A DNA stretch of 23,585 bases, taken from IMG/VR virus record IMGVR_UViG_2565956613_000007. One strand, given 5' to 3'. Position 1 is the stretch's first letter. Each line of letters opens with the position of its first letter. The notes below the pieces were generated by a model that did not search any database, was not told the origin of the DNA, and worked only from the letters and a program-made list of their open reading frames with translations. Both the position numbers and the translations under genes were made by a program. Below are positions 4,726 through 23,585 of the stretch, piece after piece. Origin of the DNA: a virus (taxonomy: Duplodnaviria > Heunggongvirae > Uroviricota > Caudoviricetes).

Positions 4726-7713
4726 ATGAGCTTAAGCGATCAGGTGGTAATGGCCACCAGCATAGAAACGCTGATCGAGCTGCTAAAGAACCTGCCCGAT
4801 TATGGGCGGGTTTCGTATGTGGTGACAGCGAAGGGAGACGAGGTAAAAACAGCGTTTGATATCGTCGATGCCTCAGTTCTTTTGGTATCCAATACTCTGG
4901 ATGGGAAAATTAATCCAGACTATCCCCAGGAACTTCAGCCGCGCGACCGGACCCGCGCATCCAGCCTTCTTCAGGTCAACCAGATATCCAAGGATTTGCG
5001 TCCTGCCCAGCTTACCGATTCCGGTTTATCCAGCCATGGCGCGCCAATAATTGGTGAGGACAATGCCGTTGAGTCAGGTAATGGGCGGACCATGGGGATC
5101 ATTAAAGCCTATCAGGACGGTAATGCGGATCGGTATCGGGAGTACCTGATTGAACATGCGACCGAATTCGGCATACGGCCTGAAAAGGTTGAATCAATGA
5201 CGGCTCCGGTACTGGTGCGCCGCCGGTTAACGAAGGTTGACCGTGTTCAGTTTGCCAAGGACTCAAATATTTCTGATCTCCAGGAAATGGCAGCCAGTGA
5301 AAAGGCTTTTGTTGATGCCGACAGCATAACACCGGCGATGATGGCGCTTTTTAACCCGTCAGAAAGCGGAGATCTGCTTAGCCGCAGTAATGACGCGTTT
5401 ATTCGCGGATTTATGACGCAAGTTGGTGCCACACAGGCGGCTGGCCTTGTAACTGAAGATGGGCGACCAACACGGCAACTTGTAGACCGTATACAAAACG
5501 CGATCTTTGCCAAGGCATATAAGGATGCGCGCCTGGTAAGGATGGTTGCAGAAGAACCTGATCCGGATATGCGTAATGTTCTGACGGCGCTTAATGCGGC
5601 AGCCAATGATTTTGTCCAGATGCAGGCTTTATCAGGAGAAGCGCACAAGCAGGCTGTGACAACTATTGTTGATGGCATTGAGACAGCGGATAGCCTCGAT
5701 AAAAAGGCGCTGGCGGCATTGAAAGATGCGGTAGACCTGGTAAGGCAATCGAAGGAGTCAGGCCAGCATATTACCGATGTTATTGCTCAGGGGGATATGT
5801 TCAGCGAAACGGCCCCGGAAGTGAAAGCACTCGCGTTGTTCATCGTCGCGAATAACCGTAGTGCGAAGCGTATGGCCACCGCCTTTAAGTTGATGGCGCA
5901 ACGTATCAATGATGAGTTACAGCACCAGGGCCAGGCGCTCGGGGATATGTTTGGCGGCGGCGATGTGTCGTTACAGGATATCCTTCGCCAAGTATCTCAG
6001 GAACTGGAAAACGAAGGTATGCAAGGGATATCTGGCGGTCTTTTCGAGTCAGCTTCTGGCGGTAGTTACAACGGTGTTGCTCCATATACCAGCTTGCTAT
6101 TACATCGGGCATCCGGCATCAAAGACATTATTCATCTGATCAGGCTGCTTTCCCGTACAGATCCCCAGGATGAACAGCTTGTTCAAGTGCTTGCGCATTT
6201 TGTTCGAATGCCTGTTGCCGACGTGAAAAAATGGTGCCGATTATTCGGTATCAGCAATTCGTTACTTCGCGGCTTGTTAAATCACGCATCCTCCCTTGGG
6301 CGCGATGGCTTTGACGAGATAGCGCAGGCGATAAAAAACGGAGATATGCCACCAGCTATTGACTGGTTTTCCATTCGCCCAACCAGGGTGAAAGCATTCC
6401 TTAGCGCGGCGCAATCAGTATCACCATTGGCAGAAATGGTTCAGAGGTTATCGCTCATATTCACAGACCATACCGCGTTGGGAGATCTGACTCTGGACGA
6501 GATGAAGGAAGCCTCCATTCAGTGGGCCGATCAACAAAATGAGGTTAACTCAGACTTCTTGCCAGCATTCAGGAAGGCCGTTAGTAAAGCTGATGATGCC
6601 CGTGGAATTCTGAAGGCATTTAAGGCATTGCAAAGTCAGGTTAATAAACATGTCGGTGATATCGATGGGGTAACGGCGGAAGGCAGGGATATCCTTAAAG
6701 AGCACGGCATAACGCCAGAGTTTATTGATGAGATCAGGACTGATATGCAGCGTGAGGTCGTATCGTCACTGCAAATCGTAGCCAGAGCGTTGGCGGATGC
6801 TAATCCGAAGAGTGCGGCCATTGTTAACCGTGTTATTGGTGATATTGAAGCATCGGAGGGCATGGGGGCGCTGAAACTCTTCCTTTCGCGAGCGTTTAAT
6901 CCTAACGGCAATATTCTCCCCGGCATTATTGGTGAGGCTAAAAAGTATGTCAGCGAAGAAGAACTTGAGCAGCTTGACCAACTACTTAAGCGATTCTCAT
7001 ATAACCCGCAGACACGCTGGCAAATGAATCAGCGAAGTATGGGTTCGGTCCACGAGAAAGTGTTATCTGCCATGAACAGTGCGATCGCAAACTCATCCGT
7101 ATCTGAAGAAAAAGCTCTTGAGTGGGCCGACTCTTTTATCACGGAAGAAGTGGAAGAAGCCCGCGCTGGACAGAATGGTGGGATAGACCTGCGCAAGGAA
7201 CTTGCTGATATTTATCGCCTGACCGGCGGTAAAATTTCGACCTTATCAAAGGTGGTTCACCACCAGGGAAGGGCATATGCAAATCTTAATGGTGTTGTTG
7301 CTGTCAATTTGAACGATGAAAATGCAAGTGCACTGTGGCACGAGCTGGGTCATCATCTTGAGTACAGTAACCCTGGTTTGTTAGAGAAAGCCCGGTCATT
7401 CCTGAAGGCCAATGTTGAAGGGGATAAGCCATCTTTCGTTAATATCGGTGGGCGTGGCAAGCCTGAATGGTGCTTCAGATCTCGATTGAGTAATATTTAT
7501 ATGGCGAAGGTATACCCGCCAGCCTCAGTAAGTAACACCGGGAAAATTCGGCAGAAATCACCGACTATTTCCAAAACGTCAGCAACGGAAGTATTCTCTA
7601 TGGCTCTTCAGTTGTATCATGACAAAGAGGCCGCTGCCGCATCACTGATGAATGGTGACGGATTGCTGGAACTGTTATTAGGTGTGGCAAAGGAGCTAAA
7701 TAATGCAGATTAA
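4726..7713 (+). CDS. ddrB: DdrB-like large protein (995 aa)
   Basis: Long uninterrupted ORF directly downstream of ddrA on the same strand. Size and position match P1 ddrB as I recall it; no enzymatic motif recognised. Confidence 0.62.
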   Translation: MSLSDQVVMATSIETLIELLKNLPDYGRVSYVVTAKGDEVKTAFDIVDASVLLVSNTLDGKINPDYPQELQPRDRTRASSLLQVNQISKDLRPAQLTDSGLSSHGAPIIGEDNAVESGNGRTMGIIKAYQDGNADRYREYLIEHATEFGIRPEKVESMTAPVLVRRRLTKVDRVQFAKDSNISDLQEMAASEKAFVDADSITPAMMALFNPSESGDLLSRSNDAFIRGFMTQVGATQAAGLVTEDGRPTRQLVDRIQNAIFAKAYKDARLVRMVAEEPDPDMRNVLTALNAAANDFVQMQALSGEAHKQAVTTIVDGIETADSLDKKALAALKDAVDLVRQSKESGQHITDVIAQGDMFSETAPEVKALALFIVANNRSAKRMATAFKLMAQRINDELQHQGQALGDMFGGGDVSLQDILRQVSQELENEGMQGISGGLFESASGGSYNGVAPYTSLLLHRASGIKDIIHLIRLLSRTDPQDEQLVQVLAHFVRMPVADVKKWCRLFGISNSLLRGLLNHASSLGRDGFDEIAQAIKNGDMPPAIDWFSIRPTRVKAFLSAAQSVSPLAEMVQRLSLIFTDHTALGDLTLDEMKEASIQWADQQNEVNSDFLPAFRKAVSKADDARGILKAFKALQSQVNKHVGDIDGVTAEGRDILKEHGITPEFIDEIRTDMQREVVSSLQIVARALADANPKSAAIVNRVIGDIEASEGMGALKLFLSRAFNPNGNILPGIIGEAKKYVSEEELEQLDQLLKRFSYNPQTRWQMNQRSMGSVHEKVLSAMNSAIANSSVSEEKALEWADSFITEEVEEARAGQNGGIDLRKELADIYRLTGGKISTLSKVVHHQGRAYANLNGVVAVNLNDENASALWHELGHHLEYSNPGLLEKARSFLKANVEGDKPSFVNIGGRGKPEWCFRSRLSNIYMAKVYPPASVSNTGKIRQKSPTISKTSATEVFSMALQLYHDKEAAAASLMNGDGLLELLLGVAKELNNAD

Positions 7714-8014
7714 AATCGCAGCGCCATTAGGCGGAGATGCCATTATCGAATTTGATGATAATGAAGAAGTTTCCGGGCGTTTAAGCATTATCTCCGGTGA
7801 CATTACCGAGGACATGATCGCTGAAGCCATAGCTGGGGCAAATCCCAATAGCTATATGGGATTCGTTAACACCCTTGATGCTCCCGCAAGTGATGTTCTC
7901 CGAACGCTGCATCTTTACGCTGGCTGGTTTGTTGATTGGCCAGCAGTAGATGGTGGCGATGAGGACGACGACGACGATGATTTTGGTGATCATGTAGACC
8001 AGATCGTATATTGA
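7703..8014 (+). CDS. Small acidic protein with a poly-Asp C-terminal tract (103 aa)
   Basis: ATG overlaps the end of ddrB with AAGGAG 8 nt upstream. The C-terminus DGGDEDDDDDDFGDHVDQIVY is strongly acidic. It is the last gene of the dar operon before a terminator. Confidence 0.55.
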   Translation: MQIKIAAPLGGDAIIEFDDNEEVSGRLSIISGDITEDMIAEAIAGANPNSYMGFVNTLDAPASDVLRTLHLYAGWFVDWPAVDGGDEDDDDDDFGDHVDQIVY

Positions 8015-8034
8015 AGAAATCCCGCCGATTGGCG
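8007..8034. terminator. Rho-independent terminator between convergent operons
   Basis: Seen in sequence: AAATCCCGCC-gatt-GGCGGGATTT stem-loop followed by a T run on the plus strand. It sits between the end of the dar operon (plus) and the end of the ssb operon (minus). Confidence 0.7.
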
Positions 8035-8042
8035 GGATTTTT

Positions 8043-8831
8043 TTAATCGCTTTCCACTTCTTCCGTGGTGTTTTCTTGCAGTTCTGTTAATGCAGCACGA
8101 CATAGGTTCCGGGCATTGGCTATAGCCACACTTTTGACTTCATCCGTCATCGTGCAGGTAATGTACTGATCGAGTTCTTCAGCGCGGATGATGCTTTTGC
8201 CAATCAGAAACTGTATTTGCCAGAGCAGATCGGCATCCATAATCAGAATTTCTGCCGGGCCTTCAGGGCCAGCCGGGAAGGAAACATAAGACTGTTTGCC
8301 CAGGCCGATAACTCGACAACTTGCTTCAAGAATTGCGCGCTTGAGGTCTGACTTTGTAACGGAAACAGGTTGGTTTTCACCAGTGATTATGCCGTTGACA
8401 TGGAAATGGAAGGGCATGTAGCTTGAAATACGCTCTACTTTCCACACGCCAGCAAGCGATCCTTCATGCAGCACAATGGGGGTAACCGCGAGTTTCATCT
8501 CACCATATAACTGCTGGCAGATAGCTGGATTGCTGAATACATCCAAAGGTTCACACTCAAACAGCGGCGCAATCTGCATGAGGTCCATCATGGTCATACC
8601 AGGGGTACGAGCAGTAATGAATCTGCGCATGCCAGTATCCATTGTGCGCCAGATAGCTACACCATGCTTTTTGCTCACTTCTTCAGTAAAGCCAAGGTGG
8701 CACATGATGGTTTTTTCGATAGCCAGATCAGAGATCGAAACCTTTTCGCCAGGCACACCATCATTATTGATGGTCACTTCGACACTCTGACCATTACGCA
8801 GGCGGTATTGAATTGCTTTAGTATTTTCCAC
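8043..8831 (-). CDS. Hypothetical protein (262 aa), last gene of the ssb operon
   Basis: GTG start 6 nt after the stop of the upstream gene, preceded by GGAG. No motif recognised. Confidence 0.55.
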   Translation of the reverse strand: MENTKAIQYRLRNGQSVEVTINNDGVPGEKVSISDLAIEKTIMCHLGFTEEVSKKHGVAIWRTMDTGMRRFITARTPGMTMMDLMQIAPLFECEPLDVFSNPAICQQLYGEMKLAVTPIVLHEGSLAGVWKVERISSYMPFHFHVNGIITGENQPVSVTKSDLKRAILEASCRVIGLGKQSYVSFPAGPEGPAEILIMDADLLWQIQFLIGKSIIRAEELDQYITCTMTDEVKSVAIANARNLCRAALTELQENTTEEVESD

Positions 8832-8837
8832 GTTAAA

Positions 8838-9515
8838 TCACTCCACTACAAACCAGTCACATGCCAGTAAGTCGCCTACAGAAGGAACCCACGGAACAAC
8901 TACACCTTGTGCATTTTTTAAGGCGAAATAAGCACCATACGGAACGAGGTCGCCGGGGAAATATCCCTTAATGGCTTCCATTCGTGCCGGGTACTGTCCT
9001 TCAGGAACCAGCCAGCAGAATTGGTTTTCGCCGTTCCACCCGCGTCGAGCAACTTTCTTGCCATCCTTCAGCCACATCAGCGCGTCAGAAAAGTCGGCTG
9101 CTTCAAGGTCGATTTCTTCTTGTAGAGTAGCGATACCGCCAGCAGAAATAGTTACGTCCCTGGCTGTAATGAATGTCACCCCATTGTGACCTTCAATGCT
9201 GAGCGATACCCCATTTTCGAAGAAGTCGTTAGTCCGACTAAAGCCTTCTTCAAATGTTTTTTCTGGTGAATAGGACAGAGATCCGTCCTCATAAGCGACC
9301 AGATATCCGCCAATTTCTGGTCGGTGTTTTTGCAAAAACATTTTATCAACATGGACTTTTACCCCTTCTGGCTCAACGACTTCGATGTTGCAAAGAAGGA
9401 CCACATCCATTAGGGCGATAATTTCGATATCTTTGATTTTTGAGGCGCGAACTGTTTTATGGCTTTTGTATTTTGGAAGTGCCGTCAAAAGCTCTTTCGT
9501 TGTCATGTTATTCAT
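8838..9515 (-). CDS. Two-domain protein (225 aa) with a C-terminal DUF2829/Tad2-like domain
   Basis: Preferred start ATG at 9515 with the strong SD GAGGAAAG; the track extends it to 9683 without good initiation signals. C-terminal segment FSDALMWLKDGKKVARRGWNGENQFCWLVPEG ... GDLLACDWFVVE fits the pattern I associate with DUF2829 (the family that includes the Thoeris anti-defence protein Tad2). This is a from-memory assignment. Confidence 0.55.
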   Translation of the reverse strand: MNNMTTKELLTALPKYKSHKTVRASKIKDIEIIALMDVVLLCNIEVVEPEGVKVHVDKMFLQKHRPEIGGYLVAYEDGSLSYSPEKTFEEGFSRTNDFFENGVSLSIEGHNGVTFITARDVTISAGGIATLQEEIDLEAADFSDALMWLKDGKKVARRGWNGENQFCWLVPEGQYPARMEAIKGYFPGDLVPYGAYFALKNAQGVVVPWVPSVGDLLACDWFVVE

Positions 9516-9529
9516 AGTCTTTCCTCTGC

Positions 9530-9712
9530 TTAAAACCTGATGTCTTGCGCCTTCAGGTGGGTCAGGAATGTTTTCCCACCAGCGAAAGCAATATCTCGGG
9601 GTGTTCTTTTCGTGAAAAGCGCGTGCCATTGCCAACTTTGGCGTTTGTTTGCGAGTTCGTGCTTTTGTCGGCGTCTGGACCACCGCTTTTCTTTCAGTCG
9701 TTTTTTACACAT
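9530..9712 (-). CDS. Possible small basic protein (60 aa)
   Basis: The ATG directly abuts the ssb stop (TGAATG) and the ORF ends 14 nt before the next gene start, so it fills the inter-gene gap exactly. Very Arg/Lys-rich. No SD of its own, so low confidence. Confidence 0.3.
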   Translation of the reverse strand: MCKKRLKEKRWSRRRQKHELANKRQSWQWHALFTKRTPRDIAFAGGKTFLTHLKAQDIRF

Positions 9713-10201
9713 TCAAAACGGAATATCGTCGTCAAAGTCCATTGGAGGTTCGTTATTGGCGTTGCTCTGAGGTTTACCGCCACCACTGTATTGCTGGTGG
9801 TTTTGAGGTTGGTTTGATTGCCCCCAGCCATTTGAGGACTGTGAATCGTCACGGCGAGCGCCGATCATTTGCATGGTGCCGCCCTGGCTGACGATAATTT
9901 CCGTCGTGTAACGTTCTACACCGGCGTCATCTGTCCACTTACGGGTTTTAAGTTTCCCTTCGATGTAGACCTGAGAACCTTTTCGTAAATATTCACTCGC
10001 AATTTCAGCAAGTTTTCCGAACAAAACTACTTTATGCCATTCTGTTTGCTCTTTCTGTTGGCCCGTTTGCTTGTCGCGCCATGATTCATTCGTTGCGATG
10101 CTGAGTCTTCCGACCGCGCCGCCATTTGGTATATACCTGATCTCCGGGTCTTGCCCCAGGGTACCAATCAGGATGACTTTGTTTACACCGCGTTGTGCCA
10201 C
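9713..10201 (-). CDS. ssb: Single-stranded DNA-binding protein (162 aa)
   Basis: Classic SSB OB-fold sequence ([18 protein letters not shown] ... [14 protein letters not shown]), a Gly/Gln-rich linker and the acidic C-terminal tail MDFDDDIPF. Confidence 0.92.
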
Positions 10202-10220
10202 TTATCTTACCTAATAAAAT

Positions 10221-10237
10221 AAATTAATTAGAGCAAT
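10221..10237 (-). promoter_or_regulatory. C1 repressor operator-like 17-mer (16 of 17 match to the consensus ATTGCTCTAATAAATTT as I recall it)
   Basis: Seen in sequence: the minus strand reads ATTGCTCTAATTAATTT, located 20 to 36 bp upstream of the ssb start in the ssb/lyz divergent region. Confidence 0.5.
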
Positions 10238-10260
10238 AATGTATATCTTTGAAACGTGGC

Positions 10261-10282
10261 TAACAAGTGATTTGCATTATCC
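10261..10282 (+). promoter_or_regulatory. Putative late-promoter element TAACAAGTGA plus downstream AT-rich hexamer
   Basis: Seen in sequence: TAACAAGTGA at 10261..10270 followed by tttgcaTTATCC, about 90 bp upstream of lyz. The same 10-mer recurs upstream of prt; the ACAAGTGA core recurs upstream of the gene at 22558..23199. Confidence 0.4.
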
Positions 10283-10370
10283 TGTGCCTTCTAAAGGGAT
10301 CGAGTCAGTCGGTATTGGCTGTGAATGAGTGTTTGTCCTGGAGCGTAAAAAATTCGCTTATGAGGTCTTT

Positions 10371-10928
10371 ATGAAGGGAAAAACAGCCGCAGGAGGCGGT
10401 GCAATTTGCGCTATCGCGGTGATGATTACCATCGTGATGGGTAATGGCAATGTGCGAACCAACCAGGCGGGGCTTGAGCTGATTGGTAACGCTGAAGGTT
10501 GCCGACGTGATCCATACATGTGCCCGGCGGGGGTATGGACTGACGGGATTGGTAATACACACGGGGTAACGCCGGGTGTGCGAAAAACCGACCAGCAAAT
10601 CGCCGCTGATTGGGAAAAGAATATCCTGATCGCTGAACGCTGTATTAATCAGCACTTCCGGGGCAAAGACATGCCCGATAATGCCTTCAGTGCAATGACA
10701 AGCGCGGCATTCAATATGGGATGCAATAGCTTACGAACCTACTACAGCAAAGCGCGAGGCATGCGAGTAGAAACGTCCATCCACAAGTGGGCGCAGAAAG
10801 GGGAATGGGTGAATATGTGTAACCATCTCCCTGATTTCGTGAACAGTAACGGCGTGCCCCTGCGAGGTTTAAAGATTCGCCGTGAAAAAGAACGCCAGCT
10901 TTGCCTGACAGGACTGGTCAATGAATAA
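10371..10928 (+). CDS. lyz: SAR endolysin, T4-lysozyme-like fold (185 aa)
   Basis: Preferred start ATG 10371 (GAGG upstream). N-terminal signal-anchor-release segment AAGGGAICAIAVMITIVMG. With this start, Cys13, Glu42, Cys44, Cys51 and Thr57 fall at the positions I recall for P1 Lyz. Confidence 0.88.
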   Translation: MKGKTAAGGGAICAIAVMITIVMGNGNVRTNQAGLELIGNAEGCRRDPYMCPAGVWTDGIGNTHGVTPGVRKTDQQIAADWEKNILIAERCINQHFRGKDMPDNAFSAMTSAAFNMGCNSLRTYYSKARGMRVETSIHKWAQKGEWVNMCNHLPDFVNSNGVPLRGLKIRREKERQLCLTGLVNE

Positions 10929-11175
10929 ACTCCGGCAGCTCCGCCGACTTTCGACAATGAAGTTATCGCTGGCGGCGATAGTTTTCGACTCGATTTTCAT
11001 GGCGGTATATGTGCTCAATGAGACGTGGCCACTGGAACCGCTATTGTATGCTGGGCTTCGGCTGTGCCTGACATTTTTGAGCATGGCTGCAAGATTGATG
11101 CAGCAGAAAGAAACCGCTTCAGATTGTCCACGCCGCGCGGTGCGCAAATATATGGCACGCAGGCGAAGGCGATAA
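10921..11175 (+). CDS. Small membrane protein (84 aa) with a poly-Arg C-terminus, translationally coupled to lyz
   Basis: ATG overlaps the lyz stop (ATGAATAA). Hydrophobic core LSLAAIVFDSIFMAVYVL and C-terminus RKYMARRRRR. Possibly lysis-associated; function not established. Confidence 0.45.
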   Translation: MNKLRQLRRLSTMKLSLAAIVFDSIFMAVYVLNETWPLEPLLYAGLRLCLTFLSMAARLMQQKETASDCPRRAVRKYMARRRRR

Positions 11176-11188
11176 TAGTTAACGAGAA

Positions 11189-11214
11189 CCCCGGCAGCCG
11201 CCGGGGTTATTTTT
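11189..11214 (+). terminator. Rho-independent terminator after the lyz operon
   Basis: Seen in sequence: CCCCGGC-agcc-GCCGGGG stem-loop followed by TTATTTTT. It lies between the convergent lyz operon and pro. Confidence 0.7.
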
Positions 11215-11219
11215 GGTGG

Positions 11220-13950
<2,731 letters not shown>

Positions 13951-14016: not shown

Positions 14017-17000
14017 ATGAACAAGCTATCTATGGGGGTGTTTCGCTGTTCAAGTGTCAGCGAAATATTGAAATACATTAGGGCAATAACATCTCACCGA
14101 GCGCCGATTAGATACGGCGTGGAAAAGGTGGAAGGCAAAAGCTATGACCGACTACGCCGGGAGGCGAATCAGAAGGCGATTGATTTGCTTAATTCGCTGG
14201 TGGACGGCGCGACACTGACAGATGAACAGCGCCAGATCCTGGCTGGGTACACCGGTGAAGGCGGCATTGGCGGGTCCGTCTCCGAATATTACACACCAAA
14301 GCCGATCGCTGAAGGTGTCTGGGAGATCATGAAGCTCTACGGCGCGGACGTAGGTAACACTCTGGAACCATCGGCGGGCACCGGCGTTTTTAATGAGACA
14401 AAACCGGTTGGTACGGTGATGACTGCGACTGAGATCAGCAGTGTTTCCGGTCGTATAAACCAGCTGTTACACCCGGAAGACAGCGTACAGATTTCCCCGT
14501 TCGAACAGCTGGCTGTAAGCACGCCTAACGATTCATTCGACCATGTTGTGGGTAACGTTCCGTTCGGTGGTCGTGATAACACACGCAACATCGATAAGCC
14601 TTACGCAGAAGAAACGGACATGGGTTCTTACTTCATGCTCCGCATGCTGGACAAGATAAAGCCAGGCGGATTCATGTGCGTGATTGTGCCGCCGTCCATT
14701 GTTTCAGGTTCAAACATGAAGCGGTTACGCCTGCGCCTATCACGGAAAGCTGAATTTCTTGGTGCTCACCGCTTGCCTACCGGTACTTTTGACGCAAACG
14801 GGACCAGTACAGTCGTTGATGTGGTGCTGATGCGCAAACATCCGGCAGAGATGGCTGAGAAAATCCCCCTGGTGGATGAAAGCACTCTTGAATCGGCAAA
14901 TGTGCTTTGGCCAACGTTTATTTCTGGCAAGTGGTTTGAAAAGGACGGTCGCCGGTTTGTTCATGGCACCCAGGAGAAGGGATTCCAGGGGCGTATTGAG
15001 GTTCGTGCCGACGGGCAGATTGATAACCAGGCTCTTAAAGCGAAGCTGATTCATCGTTTCGAAAGTCGTATCGACTGGTCTTTACTCAATATGGCTGAAC
15101 CGTCACCGACCGCAGACGTTGTTGATGAAGGGGAAATGCGCCTGATTAATGGCGTATGGCAAAAATATGCTGGTGGTCGCTGGATTGAATCTGATGCAGG
15201 GAAGGAGCTGAAGATTGATGTTGCCAGTTATGGCGCGGACAGCTGGGAGGCTCTTCAGCGTAACCTGACTACAACAGAAGGCCGTCTCGGTATGACATTT
15301 ACCCAGATGGCAAATGTCCGCGATAAGTACACCACATCAATCAGCGACGATATGGTGCAGCTGGTGGACTGGATTAACAGCCAGCCTGAAAAATACCGTG
15401 AACGCTTGTATCGCGGGGCGATGATTGGCCGGATGTTAATTGAATATCAGGACATGAAGGCCGCCGGGCATAGTGCTGAACAAATCGAACAGCAGCGCCT
15501 TTCTCTGGTATCCCGTTTGCAGGCAGAGATTGACCGTTTTGGTAACCCCGGTCGCGGTCCGATAGCGAAATTATCGGGGAGCGGTGCGCGCGCCTGGTTT
15601 GCTTTCCGTGGTGCAATTAAGCTGGATGGCACTATTTCTGACGAGCTGACAGGAAAACTGGTTACGCATGATTCCAGCGCCAGTTATGACTCCACCAGCT
15701 ATCAGGACACCCTGCGTTATCTCTACAGTGATCTCACTCGCGATCCAATCCAGCTCGATGATTTCCGCCTTGCGTTTACCGGCGAACTGCCAGCCAGTGA
15801 TGACGAGTTGCTTAATTTATTGGCCAGCACCCCTGGCATTGCGGTTTCACCGTATGGCGGGATTGTTCCGTTCGCCCGCGCCACCAGCGGAGACATTAAC
15901 GAGATAGTGGCACCAAAACAGGAATTCCTTGCCACACTCCCCGACGGTCCAGTAAAGAACAACGTCCTTAATCAGCTGGCAGCGATCGAAGAGAAGCGCA
16001 TCAAGACGCCAGCAGAGAATATCCGCTTTAAGCTCAATAGCCGTTGGTTCGACCGTTCCGTCATTCTGGAATTTTTGCAGGAAAACGGCTATCCGGATCT
16101 TCGCTATGTGCAGTCAGTGCAGCTGGAAGGCGACGAAATGGTTTCTGACACCTATCACGGTGGTGATGGTCTGTTCGTCGGGCACCGATACGGTGTTGTC
16201 CAGCGCAAGGATAAAGAAACAGGCGAGATCCGCTACGAGTGGGACCGTAAATCAGGTGAAAACGCGACCGGGTTCCCGGCACAGCTGGAAAAGTATCTCA
16301 ATGGTGCGCGTATCGGTGGCAAAGATAGCGCGACGGCGAACGGCTACCGCGAGCAGATGGCACTGCTTGAGGACCAGTTCAATAAGTGGATCAAGACGCA
16401 CGATCGCTACGATGAACTGGTTGCCAAATACAACGATGTGTTCAATAGCAATATCCCGTATGAACACTCTGGCGATCCGCTTGGGTTGAAGGGATTAAGC
16501 GGTAAGCGCCAGCCATTTGATTACCAGAATAGCGAAGTGCGCCGACTGTCCGAAGATGGGCGCGGCATCCTGGGCTTCGGCACCGGGCTGGGTAAAACTA
16601 CGACCGCGCTGGCGCTTGAAGCGTTCAACTATGAGAACGGTCGCTCCACCCGTACTGCGTATGTAGTGCCTAAATCAGTGCTGGAAAACTGGTATTACGA
16701 AGCAAAAGAATTCCTGAGTGAAGAGGCATTCAGTAACTACCTGTTCGTCGGTCTTGATGTGCTGATGGATGGCGATCAGATTCGCCAGGTGCCGGTGCTC
16801 GATGAGAACGGTAAACCTGTTCTTGGTACTGATGGCACTCCAGTTATGCGCGATGCCCTAAAACTGGCAGATGAAGCCACTATCACGGCGCGGATGAACG
16901 CGATCCCGCACTCAAATTACCGTGCAGTCGTGTTTACCAAAGAACAATACGCCCGCATTCCGCTACGTGATGACACCGTAGATGAGCATGCACAGGATAT

Positions 17001-20817: not shown

Positions 20818-21258
20818 ATGGCCACACTATCTGATACAATAAAACCGAATAAAACATATCTTGAGGCGGTACTCCGTACAGCGTTGTTAGGAAAGACAGA
20901 AGACGAATACGTTGATTTCTTCCTGTCAGGGCTACGCGGGCGATTACTGAAAAATCCCCGCCTGTACCGCAGCTATGGTCCATACTGGCCGGAAATTAAA
21001 AAATTATTACTGGAGCGCGGTTATGGTAATTTCGGTCGTCTCGTTGACCGTGACGTTCGCAAAATTTACCGTTATGACCGCCCGGCGCTGACGCTCATAG
21101 CTGCGACGCTCTACAGCCAGGAGCGTTTTGATAATGGTCAGATATACTCAGCCTGGCATTTACTGCCAGTGCCTGAAGAGGTTGACGACCAGGACTATGA
21201 GTTTGAGTCTTACGATTTGGAAGTTGAAGCCTTAGCACAGGCTGGAGAGAAAACTTGA
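20818..21258 (+). CDS. ulx: Ulx-like protein (146 aa)
   Basis: Position directly downstream of darB on the same strand and upstream of an 82-aa ORF matches P1 darB-ulx-lxc as I recall it. No motif recognised. Confidence 0.5.
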   Translation: MATLSDTIKPNKTYLEAVLRTALLGKTEDEYVDFFLSGLRGRLLKNPRLYRSYGPYWPEIKKLLLERGYGNFGRLVDRDVRKIYRYDRPALTLIAATLYSQERFDNGQIYSAWHLLPVPEEVDDQDYEFESYDLEVEALAQAGEKT

Positions 21259-21503
21259 AAAAGCGATACTACACAGTAAAGCATGGGACGCTACGAGCAT
21301 TACAAGAGTTTGCTGACAAGCATAACGTTGAGGTGCGCAGGGAAGGGGGAAGTAAAGCTCTGCGCATGTACCGTCCGGACGGGAAATGGCGTACGGTCGT
21401 CGATTTCAAAACTAACAGCGTTCCCCAGGGCGTCCGCGATCGGGCATTCGAAGAATGGGAGCAGATCATCATAGATAACGCATTGCTTCTGAATGCTGAT
21501 TGA
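21255..21503 (+). CDS. lxc: Lxc/Bof-like small protein (82 aa), putative C1 co-repressor
   Basis: Apparent TTG start overlapping the ulx stop (TTGA), with GGAGAG 5 nt upstream. The 82-aa length and the position after ulx match my memory of P1 lxc (bof). Symbol by synteny. Confidence 0.5.
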   Translation: MKKRYYTVKHGTLRALQEFADKHNVEVRREGGSKALRMYRPDGKWRTVVDFKTNSVPQGVRDRAFEEWEQIIIDNALLLNAD

Positions 21504-21564: not shown

Positions 21565-22515
21565 ATGAATGTTTTTATTGATACAAATCTATATTTAGAA
21601 TTTTATCGAATGGGTAAGGATAAACTAGATGAGCTAGATAAAGTATTTGCCTTACATCAATATGGTCGTTTAAAACTTTGGTTGCCAGAACTTTTAGTGA
21701 ATGAGTTCTGGAGAAATCGTTCTAAAGTTCTCTCTGAAACCATAAAGGAAATTGCAAAAGACTACAAGCCCGCGCTACCACAGATTTTCAGACAGCATGA
21801 AAAACATTCACTATTTAATGATAAGGTTATAGAAGCTAGTCGGCTAAAGAATGAAATTATTACCGATATACAGAACTTATTTAAAGAAGAGTCTTTAGCT
21901 GCCGATGTTGTAATTAAAAGGATTTTTGATGCAGCGTCTAAGATAGAGGCTGATGATGAAACAATAGAAAAGGGGAAACGCCGATTCGATCTTGGCAACC
22001 CTCCGGGTAAAAATAAATCATATGGTGATGCAGTCAATTGGGAGTGTTTGCTAAAAGCGATACCAAACGGAGAGGATATATACATTATAACTGAAGATGG
22101 TGATTATAAAAGTGCCTTTATAAAGGATGATATGAATGAGTATTTGAAGTACGAGTGGAAAAAGAAGAAAGATTCAGAACCACATATCTATGCCCGCTTA
22201 TCAGAGTTTATAGGCGAGCACTTTCCTCAAGCCAGTAACTTAGCGGAAATGGAAGTTAATTTCACTATAGATGAATTACGCCGCTCAGGCAGTTTTGCCA
22301 CAACACATCGAGTTGTAGCAAAGTTATTAAAATTCAATCATTTTACACAAGAGCAAATCCTAAAAATAATCGATATCTATTTTAATAATGATCAGGTTGG
22401 CTTCATTAAAGATGATGATGATGTAAAACTACTCGCCAGAAGACTAATATCACTTGGTGACGAGGATAAAGATCCTGAAGGGATGCTTGAGCCATTCCGT
22501 GTATTTATTGATTAA
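21565..22515 (+). CDS. PIN-like nuclease-domain protein (316 aa) in an AT-rich acquired cassette; candidate defence/abortive-infection effector
   Basis: ATG with AGGA 6 nt upstream. N-terminal beta-strand with Asp (MNVFIDTN), then LPELLVNEF, DLGNPPGKNKSYGDAVNW and IYIITEDGDY, a spacing of acidic residues typical of PIN-like folds. Codon usage and base composition are visibly AT-rich, unlike the flanking genes. Confidence 0.7.
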   Translation: MNVFIDTNLYLEFYRMGKDKLDELDKVFALHQYGRLKLWLPELLVNEFWRNRSKVLSETIKEIAKDYKPALPQIFRQHEKHSLFNDKVIEASRLKNEIITDIQNLFKEESLAADVVIKRIFDAASKIEADDETIEKGKRRFDLGNPPGKNKSYGDAVNWECLLKAIPNGEDIYIITEDGDYKSAFIKDDMNEYLKYEWKKKKDSEPHIYARLSEFIGEHFPQASNLAEMEVNFTIDELRRSGSFATTHRVVAKLLKFNHFTQEQILKIIDIYFNNDQVGFIKDDDDVKLLARRLISLGDEDKDPEGMLEPFRVFID

Positions 22516-22557: not shown

Positions 22558-23199
22558 TTAAAGATAATTATCTCTGCCGGTTAATGAACCTTGAGGCACT
22601 TTCCGTGCGGTCATTTCATGAGTAGCTTGAATTATATTCACAAGGGAGCTTAGTAACGAAGGTTCTTGGCGGGTATCAATTTCTCCAGCCATTGCCCTGA
22701 TGTAGTCGGAGCTTGCAACGTTGTTGTATTCCGTTGCGAAGCAGCATAACAACGTCAGAACGTGCTCTGTCGTTATTTCGCTCCAGTTGATGTTGAAAAA
22801 TTCATCGCCTTTTTTGTCATGTTCGGAATCGAAGATGCTTTGGTGGAGGATGTATTTGCCGGATTCTTTGCGCGGTAACTTGATCGCTTTCTGGCGTTCC
22901 AGCTCCTTGTAAATCTGCATTGCTTCAATCAGTACCGGCCTGCCGTTCATGAAGGGATCGCGCAACCTTACACGCTGGCCAACTCGACCAGTAATAAAGC
23001 TGTTTTCCTCTTCCACCAGCACGATAAAACCCTTTTCCTCTTTTTCTCGCAATTCGCGCAGCAGCTGGAGTTCCATGTCGCGGCGGCGTTCAGGGTAGCT
23101 GGTACGCTCAGCCATTATCAGCTCGTTGTTGATCCATGCAGCAGTCATTGACGCCGGTTTGCCGACGCTCATCGAAACAACGCATATTTTCTTATCCAT
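22558..23199 (-). CDS. Hypothetical protein (213 aa from the preferred start)
   Basis: Preferred start ATG at 23199 with SD AGGGGG; the track start at 23346 lacks signals and would lie upstream of the putative promoter element. Glu/Arg-rich helical segment ELQLLRELREKEEKG. Convergent with the PIN-like gene. Balanced G+C, so probably a phage backbone gene. Confidence 0.55.
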   Translation of the reverse strand: MDKKICVVSMSVGKPASMTAAWINNELIMAERTSYPERRRDMELQLLRELREKEEKGFIVLVEEENSFITGRVGQRVRLRDPFMNGRPVLIEAMQIYKELERQKAIKLPRKESGKYILHQSIFDSEHDKKGDEFFNINWSEITTEHVLTLLCCFATEYNNVASSDYIRAMAGEIDTRQEPSLLSSLVNIIQATHEMTARKVPQGSLTGRDNYL

Positions 23200-23330
23200 A
23201 GCGCCCCCTACAAAAAAGAAAAGCCACCAGCGGCGGCTTAGCAATACAACAGAAGGTAGCGCCCGGTACTCAGACTGTGCCGTCCATGGAATATTTGAAA
23301 AGGGATCCATCCGTACCGGGCGTGTGATGA

Positions 23331-23350
23331 TTCTGACTGAAGTCACTTGT
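23331..23350 (-). promoter_or_regulatory. Putative late-promoter element (ACAAGTGA core) upstream of the 22558..23199 gene
   Basis: Seen in sequence: the minus strand reads TTGACAactgACAAGTGActtcagTCAGAA, about 130 to 150 nt upstream of the ATG at 23199. Confidence 0.35.
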
Positions 23351-23459
23351 CAGTTGTCAATTATTTATTATTAAAAATAATATATTTATTAGTGCATACA
23401 AATAAGGCACTAAGTGTGCACATTGCAACCTCAGAGAGGAAACATTCAACTAGATTGTT

Positions 23460-23476
23460 GTTGCTCTAATAAATTT
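23460..23476 (+). promoter_or_regulatory. C1 repressor operator-like 17-mer (16 of 17 match to ATTGCTCTAATAAATTT)
   Basis: Seen in sequence: gTTGCTCTAATAAATTT in the AT-rich region at the right end of the window, presumably controlling a gene beyond the window edge or the divergent region. Confidence 0.5.
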
Positions 23477-23585
23477 GATTTATTGAAACAAATAAACTAC
23501 TATTGGACGCCAGACTATTGATCTTCCTGTTGTTCAGGCTTATAGTTCCTACGTCGTAGCAAATTCTGCGACCGGGTTTAGCAGC

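Follow-up and report, generated by a model that had tools for sequence, protein, structure and literature searches.

Putative C1 operators upstream of ssb and at the start of a c4-icd-ant type cassette in a P1-like phage-plasmid

The DNA analysed here is a stretch of 23,585 nucleotides, referred to below as the window. For the part from 8000 to 12000 the megablast matches were the Punavirus genomes SJ46, Ro157c2YLVW, P1, P7 and RCS47 at 97-99% identity, and hundreds of Escherichia and Salmonella P1-like plasmid prophages matched the entire window. By its sequence, the window belongs to a P1-like phage-plasmid (Punavirus) and is reverse-complemented with respect to the P1 map. The gene order is ddrB and others, isaA-like, ssb (minus strand), lyz, pro, prt, darB, ulx, lxc, a PIN-domain gene and mat (minus strand). 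The genes on which the analysis turned were the following:

8043..8831, minus strand: isaA-like gene, 262 aa, third gene of the putative ssb unit (97% identical to P1 IsaA residues 60-320)
8838..9683, minus strand: second gene of the putative ssb unit; its 281-aa product contains, over residues 197-280, a Tad2-like domain, formerly DUF2829 (Pfam PF11195, E = 2.5e-22)
9713..10201, minus strand: ssb, 162 aa, GTG start (Pfam SSB, E = 7e-40; 99.4% identical to P1 Ssb)
21255..21503, plus strand: lxc (bof), the C1 co-repressor gene (the homologous position is annotated as lxc or modulator protein in JL22, P1 and P7)
21565-22515, plus strand: gene of a PIN-domain protein (PIN_12, PIN_8), 316 aa, between lxc and mat
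22558..23310, minus strand: mat, the maturation control gene (its ATG at 23310 corresponds to P1 position 2716)

The slot of the PIN-domain gene is held in P1 by the EcoPI res/mod genes. The c1 gene lies outside the window, while the co-repressor gene lxc lies inside it. Lxc enhances the binding of C1 at its operators, 22 of which are dispersed in P1 (PMC8546580).

The consensus of the C1 operator is the asymmetric 17 bp sequence ATTGCTCTAATAAATTT, with the core GCTCTAAT. The consensus used in the original prediction proved to be the same as the published one (PMC8546580). The two 16 of 17 matches that had been claimed were both found in their places: ATTGCTCTAATTAATTT at 10221-10237 on the minus strand (site 1) and GTTGCTCTAATAAATTT at 23460-23476 on the plus strand (site 2), each with a single mismatch. 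Given the size and composition of the window, 0.00016 sites with at most one mismatch would be expected by chance, and such a site did not occur in any of 400 Markov-1 simulations. When up to three mismatches were allowed, 0.11 matches were expected per window and none of 100 shuffles reached three matches. A related plasmid supplied 15 operator-like sites for the training of a weight matrix (PWM), the homologues of the window's own sites having been excluded. The matrix gave 26.0 bits for site 1 and 23.8 bits for site 2, within the range of the training sites (21.3-28.5 bits), and under its null model 0.007 sites per window are expected at 20 bits or above and 0.18 at 15 bits or above.

One weaker look-alike was also recorded inside a coding region:

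14071-14087, minus strand: operator-like 17-mer with three mismatches inside darB, ATTGCCCTAATGTATTT (PWM 15.9 bits, 0.18 expected by chance)

It lies in frame, over codons 19-24 of darB, and was found in the plasmid pB19429_2 (NZ_CP142921) too; the P1 annotation has no operator in the matching region. As a C1 operator this 17-mer is marginal.

The plasmid pB19429_2, which has the same right-end junction as the window, encodes a C1 protein 98.9% identical to that of P1. About 20 operator-like sites with at most three mismatches were present in it at the places expected from the P1 regulon, including the overlapping dmt pair, kilA, the immI modules, ssb, mat, the coi-c1 region and lpa. We infer a cognate c1 gene in this particular genome as well.

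Site 1 lies between ssb and the divergently oriented lyz (10371-10928), with the following elements:

10221..10237, minus strand: monovalent C1 operator Op21 / Ossb, ATTGCTCTAATTAATTT, by identity to the annotated P1 Op21 (AF125376, AF234172)
10238..10266, minus strand: ssb promoter P2ssb (former Pr21), transferred from the P1 annotation by alignment
10265..10283, plus strand: late promoter LPlyz of lyz, transferred from the P1 annotation by alignment

In the P1 ssb record (AF125376) Op21 is annotated as a C1 binding site between the ssb promoter and the ribosome binding site, in the P1 genome record (AF234172) the same site is the monovalent C1-controlled operator Ossb, former Op21, and the P7 annotation has an Op(ssb) at the equivalent place. 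The resemblance to P1 goes beyond the operator itself: the 17-mer, the promoter hexamers and the distance to the ssb start were all identical in the P1 records (AF125376, AF234172, M25412), the divergent lyz neighbour with its late promoter was shared, and the whole ssb-lyz intergenic region could be aligned at about 99% identity. P2ssb consists of a -35 element TTGTTA (10261-10266), a 17-nt spacer and a -10 element TACATT (10238-10243), with one substitution in the spacer relative to P1. As it is an 8/12 match to the sigma-70 promoter, the simple promoter scan with a threshold of 9/12 returned no promoter at ssb, and P2ssb was placed by homology. Site 1, read from 10237 to 10221, directly follows the -10 element and is separated by 19 nt, containing the ribosome binding site, from the GTG at 10201. 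Since the operator adjoins the -10 element, the start of transcription must fall inside it, which is the arrangement of a classic RNA polymerase block.

A more distant relative was provided by the Cronobacter phage JK004, whose SSB is 63% and whose C1 homologue is 77% identical, and in which the divergent lyz-ssb arrangement is the same. In this phage (1435-1503 of the stretch compared) the intergenic region was mostly unalignable, yet the order of -35 block, -10 element, operator and ssb was kept, and the operator, ATTGCTCTAATAATTAT, ends 21 nt before the ssb GTG. Phage D6, taken as an outgroup for the ssb operator, had no close ssb match. The first demonstration of C1 binding to Op21 is said to be that of Citron, Velleman and Schuster (J Biol Chem 1989), and Lehnherr et al. 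(J Bacteriol 1999) reportedly found an ssb-lacZ fusion to be fully repressed in lysogens. By RT-qPCR in P1, ssb belongs to the C1-controlled genes whose expression goes up once the thermolabile C1.100 has been inactivated by heat (PMC4713147). The identity with the annotated Op21/Ossb and this induction in P1 support the prediction that ssb is under C1 control. By sequence, site 1 is thus an already known operator, the identical one having been annotated and studied in P1. Within the P1 immunity regulon Op21 has textbook status, and a P1 specialist would find no surprise here. C1 bound over the transcription start and the short 5' leader, aided by Lxc, would block RNA polymerase, so that the ssb unit (ssb, Tad2-like and isaA-like genes) would be off in the plasmid prophage, and on when C1 is absent, as in a fresh infection, or inactivated, as in induction.

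A gap of 29 nt separates ssb from the Tad2-like gene, and one of 6 nt separates the latter from the isaA-like gene; all three share a strand. Simple scans of the minus strand from 7600 to 10300 gave neither a promoter nor a terminator. Because of this spacing and the lack of minus-strand signals in these scans, one C1-controlled transcript of the three genes would be the simplest reading, and C1 control may reasonably be extended to the DUF2829 gene, as had been proposed. Proteins with DUF2829 constitute the Tad2 family, whose members sequester gcADPR, the signal molecule of Thoeris (bioRxiv 10.1101/2023.05.01.538930). The product of the isaA-like gene (262 aa) had no Pfam match.

The corresponding region of P1 is organized differently. 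P1 IsaA is a fusion of the first approx. 55 residues of the 281-aa gene product with residues 2-262 of the 262-aa one, which means that P1 has deleted the Tad2-like domain. Downstream of ssb, P1 therefore carries the deletion-fused isaA followed by IS1, whereas in the window the Tad2-like gene is intact, the isaA-like gene is separate and IS1 is absent. Since P1 is devoid of the Tad2-like gene, the published P1 expression data do not extend to it and P1 offers no precedent for its control. The slot after ssb corresponds to the region of difference RD-2 (PMC6906374). It is occupied by the Tad2-like and isaA-like genes in the window (8043-9683), by an 'anti-phage dGTPase' in pB19429_2 (5023-6378 of the stretch compared), by nmpC in P7 (2223-3338 of the stretch compared) and by isaA-IS1-isaB in P1.

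Site 2 is found close to the right end of the window, upstream of two promoter-like sequences and a truncated leader:

23460..23476, plus strand: C1 operator of the Op51 / Oc4 type, GTTGCTCTAATAAATTT, by column-for-column alignment with P1 Oc4 (48140-48156) and P7 Op(c4)
23475..23503, plus strand: P51a-like (P2c4-like) promoter, -35 TTGATT (23475-23480), 17-nt spacer, -10 TACTAT, by sequence reading and homology with P1 P2c4
23518..23546, plus strand: P51b-like (P1c4-like) promoter downstream of site 2, TTGATC-17-TATAGT, from the promoter scan and aligned with the annotated P1 P1c4
23540..23585, plus strand: 5' part of the c4-a1b1 leader (target sites of the C4 antisense RNA), ended by the window edge (Rfam RF03163)

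The P51a-like promoter is an 8/12 sigma-70 match, below the threshold of the scan, and it was placed by homology. Its -35 hexamer overlaps the last 2 bp of site 2. Both 17-mers fit the consensus and both are situated where a bound repressor would block a promoter, site 1 directly after the -10 element and site 2 over the -35 element. The leader matched positions 1-46 of the 53 of RF03163 with 42.5 bits (E = 1e-9); it falls short of the gathering score of 46.7 for no other reason than that the end of the window clips the match. A search of the whole window with the Rfam gathering thresholds accordingly returned nothing, and the leader was seen only in an E-value search of the last 286 nt.

In P1 (Oc4, former Op51, AATGCTCTAATAAATTT) and in P7 (Op(c4)) the operator has the same position relative to the -35 element of P51a/P2c4, and it is likewise followed by the P51b/P1c4 promoter and the a1b1 leader. 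The three operators have the core TGCTCTAATAAATTT in common, while their first two positions vary (GT in the window, AA in P1, TC in P7) and the DNA upstream of site 2 is unrelated to that of P1 Op51 and P7 Op(c4). The core TGCTCTAAT was invariant in six c4-icd-ant modules (the window, three of pB19429_2, P1 and P7), the upstream flanks being unrelated. In eight orthologous cassettes located next to mat, 15 of the 17 operator columns and all six of the TTGATT hexamer were invariant, as against 12 of the 20 nt to the left of site 2 and 19 of the 37 nt to the right. Position 1 is A in six of these eight, four of them being perfect consensus sequences; the G of the window is a minority variant and is present in none of the 15 training operators. 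Going by this comparison, the operator at site 2 is of a known kind, the ordinary Op51 type, and what is new is this copy of it.

A bivalent operator at site 2 was considered and rejected. The inverted partner (23476-23492, minus strand) scored 8.2 bits and was variable among the eight relatives, and it would overlap site 2 by 1 bp, compared with 6 bp in the overlapping dmt pair of pB19429_2. This half-site reads TTTGCTCTAATAAATCA in Ro157c2YLVW (three mismatches) and has decayed to TTTGTTTCAATAAATCA (six mismatches) in the window.

A third operator, absent from the original prediction, was found upstream of mat:

23382..23398, minus strand: C1 operator Omat (former Op2b), TATGCACTAATAAATAT, four mismatches to the consensus (PWM 19.0 bits)

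P1 Omat is annotated at 2628-2645 with the sequence CATGCACTAATAAATAT. The two are identical in 16 of the 17 bases and have the same position about 20 bp upstream of the Pmat -35 element; in P1 the operator overlaps the stop codon of ref, and the Omat of the window is at the corresponding position. The difference concerns the first base, T in the window and C in P1, because the P1 homology ends inside the operator at the junction where ref has been replaced. In eight related elements 15 of the 17 columns were invariant. Since mat has its own operator, its control is attributable to Omat and not to site 2. A promoter-like sequence, TTGTCA-16-AATAAT (10/12), was also noted at 23354-23381 on the plus strand. 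It is directed rightward, its -10 element ends directly before Omat and it overlaps the Pmat -35 element back to back; it could read through Omat towards c4-icd-ant.

The homology with the ref-mat region of P1 ends at 23397, inside P1 Omat and at the ref stop codon. Past this position most P1-like phages carry ref, while about 32 plasmid records and the phage Ro157c2YLVW share the sequence of the window. The plasmid pB19429_2 was 98.8% identical over 23340-23585. In this plasmid and in Ro157c2YLVW an Icd-like gene and then a KilAC antirepressor gene come next, and in pB19429_2 Rfam detected the full c4-a1b1 leader and the C4 antisense RNA (70 bits) between the operator and icd, icd and ant being intact. 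To judge from these relatives, an immI-type c4-icd-ant cassette would begin at the right end of the window and extend for the most part past it. P1 immI is located next to sim and kilA, whereas this cassette is located between mat and c8, where it replaces the ref reading frame.

The replacement concerns exactly the ref reading frame (P1 2069-2628; NZ_CP142921 71600-73380), and the cassette has the opposite orientation. One junction is inside Omat (23397/23398 in the window), the other just before the ref start codon (P1 2069), and the orphaned Oref has decayed to ATTGTTATAATTAATTG in pB19429_2. The idea that C1 operators served as recombination joints in the ref-to-immI swap is half supported at best, because one junction is inside Omat but the other precedes the ref start and is not at Oref. 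An operator-like 17-mer also occurs between cre and c8, ATTGCTATAATTATTTG in P1 (1485-1501) and ATTGCTCTAATTATTTG in pB19429_2 (NZ_CP142921 73843-73859); in AF234172 it has no C1-site annotation.

The b1 target of the window cassette, GGGTTTAGCAGC, is of the P7 and not of the P1 type, and so is the C4 loop in pB19429_2. In the eight orthologous cassettes the b1 target is either TTTAGCAGC or TTTGACAGC, which means that the cassettes next to mat carry different C4 specificities. Three icd-antirepressor modules were seen in pB19429_2, at about 28.5 kb, 72 kb and 78 kb, and in all three a C1 operator-like 17-mer stands upstream at an equivalent position. The c4 type is divergent in two of the modules, and that of the module next to mat is P1/P7. 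In relatives of the window the cassette next to mat comes on top of one or two other icd-ant modules. For pSvP1, 'homologs of P1 icd-ant1/2' have been described next to mat, in a region of difference replacing res-mod (PMC6906374).

It had been predicted that the right end is under repressor control. The operator was confirmed, and alignment identified it as one of the Op51/Oc4 type, but the claim was vague as to what is controlled: the target would be the antirepressor operon, over which C1 would have partial control, as the P51b-like promoter is situated downstream of site 2. A model of P1 immI is reportedly given by Heinrich et al. 1995. By analogy, C1 at site 2 would shut off the upstream P51a-like promoter by occluding its -35 element, while the P51b-like promoter would stay free and continue the supply of the leader and C4 RNA. 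The C4 RNA would pair with the a/b targets and keep the expression of icd-ant, the antirepressor, down. This mechanism was modelled on P1 immI from its GenBank annotation and from general descriptions (PMC8198154, PMC8201110), and the two right-end promoters are presumed to be active on the same basis.

Three other explanations of the two sites have to be weighed. Both could be functionless occurrences of an AT-rich word: the motif is AT-rich, both sites are in AT-rich intergenic stretches, and weaker look-alikes such as the one in darB do exist, at a score (15.9 bits) for which 0.18 sites of 15 bits or above are expected. However, two sites with at most one mismatch were found against an expectation of 0.00016, site 1 is identical to an annotated operator, and both are conserved islands within otherwise diverged relatives. 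The statistics together with the homology effectively refute a chance origin, which we consider to have practically no likelihood. Site 1 could, alternatively, act mainly on the divergent lysis gene lyz, or in both directions, rather than specifically on ssb. It does lie within the 169-bp divergent intergenic region and its end is only 27 bp from LPlyz, but it is on the ssb strand after the -10 element of the ssb promoter, LPlyz is outside the operator, P1 records class LPlyz as an Lpa-dependent late promoter (PMC8201110), and the P1 and P7 annotations both give the operator to ssb. LPlyz is not C1-controlled, and a main action on lyz is very improbable.

Somewhat more weight, though still little, belongs to the explanation that the c4-icd-ant cassette beside mat is a duplicate of immI in decay, and site 2 a relic with nothing useful left to control. 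The window stops ahead of any gene of the cassette, redundancy is plausible with up to three icd-ant modules in the relatives, the inverted partner half-site has decayed (8.2 bits) and varies among relatives, and position 1 of site 2 is the unusual G. Against this, the block of operator and -35 element is more conserved than its flanks among eight cassettes that differ by up to about 10%, and in the cassette of pB19429_2 the C4 RNA reaches a full score (70 bits), the a1b1 leader is complete and the icd and ant frames are intact. We regard decay as unlikely. Because of the sequence identity and positional homology to annotated operators (Op21/Ossb for site 1, P1 Oc4/Op51 and P7 Op(c4) for site 2), their conservation in relatives and what has been published on ssb of P1, it is highly probable that both 17-mers are operators of the P1-type C1 repressor regulon.

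For annotation, these results pin the window as a P1-like plasmid prophage, would assign the ssb unit to the regulatory class of C1-controlled, early genes, and would mark the right end as the beginning of an immI-type antirepressor operon of P7 specificity at the location of P1 ref. An intact Tad2-like gene probably stands under the C1-controlled ssb promoter in this lineage, a by-product of modest interest. A wider picture can be offered only tentatively, and we would not count it as the likelier outcome: the C1-gated ssb promoter may drive an intact candidate anti-Thoeris (Tad2-like) gene, the slot after ssb may be a site of C1-timed defence and counter-defence cargo, and the antirepressor cassette of P7 specificity that has taken the place of ref would likewise be C1-gated. 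If this is true, the timing of an anti-defence gene would be set directly by the prophage master repressor, which would keep it off while the phage persists as a plasmid and let it come on as soon as infection or induction begins, and plasmids of this kind would own up to three differently addressed antirepressor modules.
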